A stretch of 6,207 nucleotides of DNA from a virus (taxonomy: Duplodnaviria > Heunggongvirae > Uroviricota > Caudoviricetes). Position numbers and translations under genes: made by a program. Below the pieces are notes generated by a model, which saw only the letters and a list, made by a program, of their open reading frames with translations, was not told the DNA's origin and did no database searches. How positions within the stretch are numbered: position 1 is the stretch's first letter; each line of letters begins with the position of its first letter. This document shows, in pieces, positions 204-417 of this stretch. The stretch lies in the IMG/VR virus record IMGVR_UViG_2711768060_000006; one strand, written 5' to 3'.

Positions 204-229
204 AAAAAAACAGCGCCTGACGGCGCTGT
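204..229 (-). terminator. Intrinsic-terminator-like hairpin (canonical on the - strand)
   Basis: Perfect 8-bp GC-rich stem acagcgcc(210-217)/ggcgctgt(222-229) with a 4-nt loop tgac; an A7 run at 204-210 on the + strand gives a U-run directly after the stem when read on the - strand. On the + strand it lies 24 nt after the transposase stop but has no downstream T-tract. Confidence 0.45.
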
Positions 230-417
230 GTCTGGCATGCCTGCAATCCGGGAAACCGGACCAGGAAAAAACTTGCAGGCCATAACAGTATCTACGCAGA
301 TCACATCAGGTTATGTTTCGTTTGTCATCAACCTCAAATTATCAATATAATTCATTTTATTTCAATAAGATAGATAATCACACCTGAGAGAACTATTCTC
401 TTGTCTCCTAAGAGTTG

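Follow-up and report, generated by a model that had tools for sequence, protein, structure and literature searches.

A predicted one-way transcription terminator in a lineage-specific segment of the IS621 right end

Introduction

What does the non-coding DNA between the recombinase gene and the right tip of the insertion sequence (IS) IS621 contribute to the element? IS621, a member of the IS110 family, is the reference bridge-RNA recombinase system, with wide use in genome engineering, and a 298-bp cassette that joins its right end (RE) to its left end (LE) is used as a unit (PMC11208160). Published work accounts for the last ~20 nt of the RE, which include the donor half-site and a promoter -35 box, and leaves the other ~85 nt without explanation in the papers that could be searched. 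We found no description of hairpins in the RE in the searchable IS621 papers, which do not include the original 2003 description of the element.

The question is posed by an IS621 copy in a 6,207-nucleotide stretch of DNA (the window; IMG/VR record IMGVR_UViG_2711768060_000006), in which two inverted repeats lie next to each other at positions 204-280. An original prediction, made from the sequence of the window, described them as a terminator on the minus strand followed by a nested hairpin with a GNRA-type loop, and suggested several roles, including a functional RNA fold, a part of the element's non-coding RNA, an insulator against read-in transcription, and a host palindrome that was the insertion target. 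We describe evidence that the first hairpin is a strong predicted terminator facing transcription from the right flank, and we compare its possible use as an insulator with other functions that the segment might have.

Results

The segment lies inside the right end of IS621

The two inverted repeats at 204-280 are entirely inside IS621, in its RE and past the transposase stop codon, in agreement with the original prediction. Positions 1-186 of the window (plus strand) are the 3' end of the IS621 recombinase (transposase) gene, with 100% identity to an annotated IS621 family transposase, and the stop codon, TAA, is at 184-186. The order of the locus is that of E. coli, msrQ-[IS621]-zinT-yodB. 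A full copy of the element (L001) is 1279 bp with an LE of 191 nt and an RE of 107 nt, and the sum of the two ends, 298 bp, agrees with the RE-LE cassette (PMC11208160). In the window, the RE is the non-coding 107 nt from 187 to 293 (plus strand). It finishes with the right donor half-site ACAGTAT (285-291) and the CT core (292-293), which form the right boundary of IS621 (PMC11208160), and the host sequence ACGCAGA comes next. The boundary is set by ACAGTAT-CT followed by flanks that vary (16 loci), and the conserved element end, ATAACAGTATCT, is nearly invariant in ~80 loci.

Comparison of IS621 copies at different sites confirmed that the second inverted repeat, at 239-280, is inside the element as well: the flanks differ and the segment is identical in copies at 16 loci. 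A search of E. coli genomes found 12,230 places in 1679 genomes. The best place was a full-length IS621 RE in 1684 of the 1687 matching records, and the one partial match examined was a relic of the terminal 32 nt. The segment was never found in E. coli outside an IS621 RE. These results refute the suggestion that it is a host palindrome into which the element inserted.

Hairpin 1 has the properties of a terminator on the minus strand only

The first inverted repeat (hairpin 1; 210-229, minus strand) consists of the stem sequences ACAGCGCC (210-217) and GGCGCTGT (222-229) on either side of the loop TGAC (218-221). The stem has 8 bp, six of them G-C, the loop is 4 nt, and the hairpin begins 24 nt past the recombinase stop codon. 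Its sequence, the scans and the d score described below all indicate that the run of seven A residues at 204-210 of the plus strand is the U7 tract of a terminator read on the minus strand.

Both repeats are present at the coordinates given in the original prediction, and both fold far better than expected by chance. We judged folding energies against 200 dinucleotide-preserving shuffles. Hairpin 1 gave -15.7 kcal/mol (z -5.7) when read on the minus strand and -15.3 kcal/mol (z -5.3) on the plus strand, the second repeat (hairpin 2) gave -19.9 (z -3.1) and -20.3 (z -3.9), and for the whole RE the values were -42.0 (z -4.7) for the plus strand and -38.7 (z -4.4) for the minus strand. The z values for both hairpins and the whole RE thus ranged from -3.1 to -5.7, with 0-1 of the 200 shuffles as stable.

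The terminator properties of hairpin 1 were restricted to one strand. A consensus scan of positions 1-700 found a single terminator-like site, on the minus strand from 229 to 210 with the tail TTTTTTCATC, and in a scan of the whole 1279-bp element this was the sole strong site. The pattern alone is common, with 0.7 sites on average per shuffle of the 700-nt region, so the significance of the site rests on the folding energies, the d score and conservation. We used the d score of d'Aubenton-Carafa and took a positive value together with a U-tract 3' of the stem to indicate a terminator. In IS621 the minus strand scored +28.8 and the plus strand -34. The minus strand has both a G+C-rich stem (at least 5 bp, with a loop of 3-8 nt) and a U-tract. 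The plus-strand tail, GTCTGGCATG, has two T residues in its first 8 nt, and the scans detected no terminator there. The reading of hairpin 1 as a textbook terminator, restricted to the minus strand, is thus upheld.

Host genes to the right of IS621 usually read into the right end

The direction of the predicted terminator corresponds to the usual direction of transcription from the right flank. We analyzed 16 distinct E. coli right flanks, including that of the window, a small sample from best-hit rows and not a census. In 12 of them a gene on the minus strand or an RNA gene reads into the RE (yacG, yhbW, cmoB, yaaA, gloC, hybG, mntH, ybiU, RtT, mhpE, yghA and yiiM), which agrees with the suggestion that the segment insulates against read-in. 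As few as 12-21 nt separate the host stop codon from the element (yiiM, hybG, yacG). In nine of the ten read-in sites examined, the interval from the host stop codon to the element contained no terminator-like motif (by the criteria of the scan tool), which would make the terminator in the RE the first that the host transcript meets. On the other side, the left neighbor reads into the LE at 15 of the 16 sites. Most copies are flanked by one or two repetitive extragenic palindromic (REP) sequences.

Some flanks occurred in more than one combination. The left flank yghU is joined through IS621 to hybG or to yghA (L114, L118 and L124 versus L126), and the right flank RtT/tRNA-Pro/eptB is joined to the left flank fdhE or gldA (L119 versus L123). 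The swapped flanks suggest rearrangements between IS621 copies.

We propose that the terminator in the RE insulates IS621 from convergent antisense transcription. IS621 inserts into REP sequences, most of which lie between convergent genes, so the gene on the right usually transcribes into the RE, antisense to the bridge RNA and the recombinase gene. Integrated IS621 requires sense read-through from the upstream flank for production of the bridge RNA and recombinase and for excision (PMC13626964); the Mach1 RNA-seq data in that work were analyzed for the strand of the bridge RNA only. Hairpin 1 and the U7 tract would function as an inward-facing Rho-independent terminator for transcription from the right flank and would stop antisense transcription 65-90 nt inside the element. 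The sense read-through needed for excision would thereby be protected from collision with antisense transcription or pairing with antisense RNA, and the displaced host gene would gain a replacement terminator. The left arm and the inner CCGG hairpin of hairpin 2 have no proven role in this mechanism; they may act as an upstream hairpin that frees the terminator fold from the influence of the variable flank. We infer that hairpin 1 probably terminates minus-strand transcription in IS621 in vivo, and we consider it about an even question whether insulation against convergent read-in is the function for which it was selected.

Most of the segment is an insertion found in five enterobacterial lineages

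A long RE is the exception among relatives of IS621. We compared 80 loci that encode relatives of the recombinase, from the stop codon to the conserved end ATAACAGTATCT. This distance was 8 or 17 nt in almost all relatives (51-83% identity; ~60 distinct orthologues). In the 17-nt type (gctTGAcnnnnATAACAGTATCT) the stop codon TGA is inside a TTGAC -35 box, and in the 8-nt type the stop codon is the TAA of ATAACAG. An RE of 99-116 nt was present only in five enterobacterial lineages: IS621, the E. whittamii variant L028 (98%), and those in Superficieibacter (L007; 84%), Pseudescherichia (L011; 83%) and Phytobacter (L020-24; 74%). A scan of metagenomes added variants of three of the long-RE lineages.

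The additional sequence begins in the recombinase gene. The last residue that can be aligned with the short-RE orthologues is H321 (codon at 166-168). The nearest short-RE elements continue ...CAC CAG GAA AAT GCT TGC GTG GCA TAA CAGTATCT, and IS621 is ~93 nt longer right after the H321 codon. This lineage-specific block (169-261, plus strand) is composed of the last five codons and the stop codon, a spacer, hairpin 1, a linker, and the left arm and inner hairpin of hairpin 2. The remaining 32 nt of the element, CAGGAAAAAACTTGCAGGCCATAACAGTATCT (262-293, plus strand), are ancestral and homologous to the last codons and the end of short-RE relatives (CAGGAAAATGCTTGCGTGGCATAACAGTATCT). In-frame removal of 169-261 would restore a frame of the short-RE type that closes at the same TAA. 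The original prediction had missed that most of the segment is a lineage-specific insertion.

The short ends are compact. The -35 hexamer of the junction promoter (gcTTGACn) contains the recombinase stop codon, TGA, in most orthologues (last 25 nt of L026-L081), and the short enterobacterial type takes its stop codon, TAA, from the donor site ATAACAGTATCT. In short-RE elements the coding sequence thus overlaps the promoter and the recombination site in a span of 21 nt.

The block has not been inherited in a simple way. A bootstrapped neighbor-joining tree grouped the long-RE elements in only 9 of 500 replicates and placed L020 outside the crown group in 84%, so we rejected a single, cleanly monophyletic origin for these elements. 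As the long REs are plainly homologous to each other, we conclude that the block was lost or exchanged between elements more than once.

Hairpin 1 is old and its U-tract is derived

The strength of the predicted terminator differed between lineages. Minus-strand d scores were +28.8 for IS621 and for L028 of E. whittamii, 0.0 for the L011 type, -4.9 for the relic L083, -5.5 for L007, -12.7 for L089 and -36.7 for the Phytobacter type. Plus-strand scores were -34 to -45 in all homologues. In every sequence the 8-nt tail had more T residues on the minus strand (4-6) than on the plus strand (1-3). The run upstream of hairpin 1 (plus strand) is purine-rich in all lineages and its sequence is not conserved. 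The A7 itself is derived in IS621: relatives have GAAACAAC, GAGATAAC or GAAAAGCGAC at 204-210, and L083, a decayed single-copy relic in E. coli, has GAAACAAC in place of the A7 of active IS621. Based on the weaker tails of the relatives and the sequence of the relic, we conclude that hairpin 1 is old and that the textbook U-tract is a refinement of the IS621 lineage.

Hairpin 1 is also nested in a longer, imperfect palindrome (197-242) whose 21-nt arms (AGGGATG...CATGCCT) have 76% complementarity. Its outer part pairs perfectly in the L011 type (AGGCATG/CATGCCT) and not at all in L007 and L020.

The stem of hairpin 1 and the linker next to it are under purifying selection. Between lineages, only 0.40-0.57 of four-fold degenerate sites and ~0.4 of the spacer from the stop codon to hairpin 1 were identical, so that neutral sites are near saturation. 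The stem was identical at 16 of 16 positions across the five lineages, save for one terminal A-T pair that is lost in L007. The linker and left arm together were identical at 13-17 of 18 positions between lineages, except in pairs with L028, in which the left arm is deleted. The loop of hairpin 1 varies in sequence (TGAC, ATGT, AATGT) and in length (4-5 nt, with 5 in L101).

The alignment did not provide covariation. Twelve long REs from the five lineages were analyzed with RNAalifold, which predicted 19 pairs, none with changes on both sides, and the consensus structure kept hairpin 1 only, as an invariant helix. Invariance of a helix neither supports nor refutes pairing. The covariation check proposed with the original prediction thus found no compensatory pairs. 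The GAAA loop of the inner hairpin, which had been taken as a sign of a functional RNA fold, was not retained among homologues: the loop is GAAA in IS621, GAGA in a decayed relic, and AATA, AAGA, GAAC, GATA, GTG or GTA elsewhere. The CCGG/CCGG core around it was kept in most lineages, and the stem is rearranged in L089.

Several findings weigh against insulation as the selected function. The U-tract is strong only in IS621 and E. whittamii, and the hairpin of the Phytobacter type scores as a terminator on neither strand, indicating that the hairpin may have an older and different function. The 8-bp stem, invariant at a divergence where neutral sites are near saturation, is more constrained than an ordinary terminator would require. 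Relatives with a short RE do without the block. The insertion contexts are from only 16 sites in a small best-hit sample, and a convergent gene pair provides read-in for either orientation of the element, so the context demonstrates exposure and not selection. At the window's own site, the right neighbor, zinT, is directed away from the element.

At that site, minus-strand read-in has a single candidate source, a promoter-like motif in the host flank. The motif (TTGAAA-16-GATAAT; 338-365, minus strand) matches the consensus at 10 of 12 positions, is outside the element, and faces it. It lies 45 nt from the RE, back-to-back with a plus-strand motif upstream of zinT (TTGTCA-18-TATAAT; 322-351; 11 of 12).

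An alternative that we consider unlikely, though deserving of attention, is that the plus-strand hairpins are the functional ones: within the recombinase mRNA's 3' untranslated region they would block 3'-to-5' exonucleases or mark a processing site and stabilize the transcript as REP hairpins do. Hairpin 1 is equally stable on the plus strand (-15.3 kcal/mol, z -5.3), is only 24 nt past the stop codon, and is kept in all five lineages, even where neither strand has a usable U-tract. In addition, the element has no plus-strand terminator, so that 3' ends must arise by processing. However, stabilization of the mRNA leaves unexplained why the run upstream of the hairpin has stayed purine-rich in every lineage at only ~40% identity, so that the minus-strand tail is rich in U and C, and why the expanding IS621 lineage has a perfect U7. 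Compensatory changes should be tolerated in such a hairpin, and none were found.

An inserted arm of the second palindrome is complementary to the -35 box of the junction promoter

Hairpin 2 is separated from hairpin 1 by the conserved linker GTCTGGCAT (230-238), which holds part of the palindrome GGCATGCC (234-241). Its outer stem is formed by a left arm, GCCTGCAA (239-246), and a right arm, TTGCAGGC (273-280, plus strand), that are complementary at 8 of 8 positions. These enclose the inner hairpin, TCCGG (247-251), loop GAAA (252-255) and CCGGA (256-260), and a tract of A residues (264-272, plus strand). The A-tract is directly upstream of the -35 box, is kept in all long and short enterobacterial ends, and is possibly similar to an UP element.

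The right arm contains the -35 box already described for the circle-junction promoter, a point not recognized in the original prediction. TTGCAG at 273-278 is the -35 hexamer, and the LE, which begins TGTATTATCCC, supplies the -10 hexamer TATTAT. In the joined RE-LE sequence acTTGCAGgccataacagtatctTGTATTATccctccAGTGCAG, TTGCAG is followed by a 17-bp spacer (GCCATAACAGTATCTTG) across the CT core, TATTAT, and then the start of the bridge RNA. The activity of the junction promoter is known, and its -35 box is located in the RE and missing from the 22-bp donor (PMC11208160). In all orthologues, TTGACN or TTGCNN starts 21 nt from the element end. The right arm is in the ancestral terminus and the left arm is in the inserted block, so the outer stem is an inserted arm paired with a pre-existing promoter element.

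The left arm has had different fates in different lineages. It is kept in the IS621, L007, L089 and L011 types and deleted in L028. In the Phytobacter type it has decayed to GGCTGAAA, and a nearer arm, CGCCTGCA, re-creates pairing with the -35 segment. This replacement could reflect selection or a templated inverted duplication.

A terminator does not explain why the stem and linker are so unusually well conserved or why pairing with the -35 box recurs, and both leave scope for a sequence-specific function. It is possible, if rather doubtful, that the stem and linker are a site for the recombinase-bridge RNA complex or for a host factor, modulating synapsis, directionality or the junction promoter, with sequestration of the -35 box by a hairpin or cruciform as part of that control. 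Identity of the stem (16 of 16) and linker (13-17 of 18) where four-fold sites are 40-57% identical is as expected for such a site, as are the lack of compensatory change and the appearance of an arm complementary to the -35 box at two positions (239-246, and the nearer CGCCTGCA in the Phytobacter type). Recombination as such does not need the block, since a 22-bp donor recombines with bridge RNA supplied in trans (PMC11208160). The block is absent from most orthologues, no partner is known, the loop varies between 4 and 5 nt (L101), and the E. whittamii element has lost the left arm; inverted copies can also arise by template switching without selection. A more elaborate version, which we rate as a shade less probable still, is that the stem and linker form an accessory site (an RNA hairpin or extruded DNA), acquired by the IS621 lineage, which acts together with the -35-pairing arm to link external transcription, or the supercoiling of the small circle, to junction-promoter activity or to the choice between excision and insertion. 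If true, the accessory site would add to bridge recombination a regulatory layer that short-RE relatives lack.

The origin of the block

The block was not found outside IS621-type right ends. There was no match elsewhere in 5426 E. coli genomes, 72,556 plasmids, or viral contigs, and in metagenome contigs the block matched only IS621-type right ends. An origin of the block by duplication of the ancestral 32 nt, with the coding tails of the long-RE elements as decayed copies, was not supported: the alignments were no better than chance (39-464 of 500 shuffles scored as high or higher).

Two other loci contain related sequences. A solo copy of the 32-nt terminus, CAGGAAAAAACTTGCAGGCCATAACAGTATCT, is present at L082:1501-1532 (NZ_CP074749, between rrf and kgtP), downstream of the 5S rRNA terminator; its first position is precisely where the inserted block gives way to the ancestral terminus. 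At the same rrf-kgtP locus, other strains (L083) carry an IS621-like copy that is decayed and frameshifted. An uncultured gammaproteobacterium has an orthologue of 58% identity, and 18 nt outside the right end of that element is the intrinsic terminator that serves a convergent host gap gene (L030:2469-2512). This terminator has an 8-bp stem identical to that of hairpin 1 (ACAGCGCC/GGCGCTGT), a loop of CGAA, and a similar A/C-rich run before it. The identity of the stems may be a coincidence, or it may hint that the block began as a captured host terminator.

A block that is a passive relic, for example the captured terminator of a convergent host gene without function for the element, is in our judgment improbable. 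The gap terminator, with its identical stem 18 nt from a distant orthologue, makes such a capture conceivable, and the solo 32-nt fragment in E. coli indicates that partial ends capable of capture exist. Purifying selection on the stem and linker speaks against neutrality, however, as does the failure to find any related sequence outside IS621-type right ends in the genomes, plasmids and viral contigs searched, and capture would explain the origin of the block but not its maintenance.

The segment is very unlikely to encode an RNA of its own

The bridge RNA is a 177-nt transcript of the LE (PMC11208160), and it maps to L001 1530-1706, in the LE and downstream of the junction promoter; the segment is in the RE, upstream of the -35 box. 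This, together with the lack of an Rfam family and of an internal promoter-like site, speaks against the suggestion that the segment is part of the element's non-coding RNA. We therefore think it highly improbable that the segment makes a small RNA (sRNA; a two-hairpin minus-strand transcript of ~90 nt ending in a U-tail would be an example) or belongs to the bridge RNA, even though the minus-strand order of hairpin, terminator hairpin and U7 resembles the 3' module of many sRNAs and ISPpu9, also of the IS110 family, has an sRNA gene, ssr9, downstream of its transposase gene (PMC12288879). A scan found no promoter-like site on either strand inside the element, and reading the junction by hand identified a minus-strand GATAAT without a usable -35. 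No match in Rfam was above chance: the only one, to Bp1_738, had 20.5 bits compared to a gathering threshold of 45 and covered the terminator-like part, so that we rejected membership in a known RNA family.

Several other candidates were rejected or found no support. The RE block did not behave as a copy or antisense partner of the bridge RNA (TGCCTGCAaTCCG; CCGGGAAACCGGACCAGGA versus the donor-binding loop), as the loops did not covary between RE and LE in four lineages. The score of the local alignment between RE and bridge RNA was reached by 1-2 of 300 shuffles when compared to the LE alone and by 16-51 of 300 when compared to the whole element. The sequence TGCCTGCAaTCCG at 238-250 is near-identical over 13 nt to TGCCTGCAgTCCG at L001:1556-1568, where the bridge RNA's 5' stem-loop meets its target-binding loop, a likeness that is probably due to chance: its score was reached by 1 of 300 shuffles for the LE alone and was not significant for the whole element. 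A small plus-strand open reading frame that starts from ATG at 201 (MKKTAPDGAVSGMPAIRETGPGKNLQAITVS...) and is open through the right end has neither start nor frame conserved in L007, L011 and L020. An internal antisense promoter that would feed the terminator, by analogy with Asr9 and Asr10, is not indicated by any promoter-like site inside the element, and the GATAAT at the junction has no -35. The spacings and hexamers in 216-248 were unfit for a sigma-54 or sigma-70 promoter when checked by hand.

Comparison with known systems

Our analysis shows that the RE of IS621, beyond its donor half-site and -35 box, is a lineage-specific, selectively constrained add-on with a strong predicted one-way terminator that faces the usual direction of host read-in. 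Constructs with the full RE are therefore predicted to carry a directional terminator. In-frame deletion of the block is probably tolerated, with the short-RE relatives as a natural precedent.

Parts of this arrangement resemble other systems. The junction promoter of the IS110 family (PMC11208160, PMC12288879) has its counterpart in IS621 in the -35 hexamer TTGCAG (273-278) from the RE and the -10 hexamer TATTAT from the LE, brought together by circularization. It covers only 273-280, and perhaps the A-tract at 264-272, and does not include hairpin 1, the inner hairpin or the left arm. In IS621 the -35 box sits behind a 100-nt spacer, whereas in most orthologues it overlaps the recombinase stop codon.

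The ssr9 gene of ISPpu9 from Pseudomonas putida (PMC12288879), a looser analogue, is likewise a dispensable module between the transposase gene and the right end that is present in only some copies or lineages. It too belongs to an IS110-family element that targets REP sequences in its host, and it ends in a predicted terminator. However, ssr9 is an sRNA gene that has a promoter, circularizes and moves alone, whereas the ~93-nt block of IS621 has no promoter-like site and was never found apart from the element.

The REP sequences of E. coli and the bacterial interspersed mosaic elements (BIMEs) that they form are G+C-rich, extragenic palindromes at the 3' ends of genes, as are the RE hairpins, and are the natural target of IS621. 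The RE segment is different: it is unrelated to them in sequence, is inside the element, and does not occur in E. coli outside an IS621 RE.

The closest precedent is IS200, which has a bidirectional Rho-independent terminator at its left end that protects it from impinging transcription (as summarized in PMC4513863). In both elements, a short G+C-rich inverted repeat near one end forms an intrinsic terminator (a predicted one in IS621) that would shield expression of the element from flanking host transcription. The two are otherwise different. The terminator of IS200, of the IS200/IS605 family, is upstream of tnpA, is described as bidirectional and blocks sense read-in. That of IS621, in the IS110 family, has a different sequence, occupies the right end, has a terminator score on a single strand and would act against antisense read-in. 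The sense read-in that is blocked in IS200 is needed by IS621 (PMC13626964). A terminator borne by an IS and directed against impinging transcription is already a known kind of device, so what is gained here is an annotation of the RE and a testable model and not a new principle. Based on the comparison, our results suggest that IS621 admits transcription at one end and blocks it at the other, an arrangement that would complement its dependence on sense read-through.

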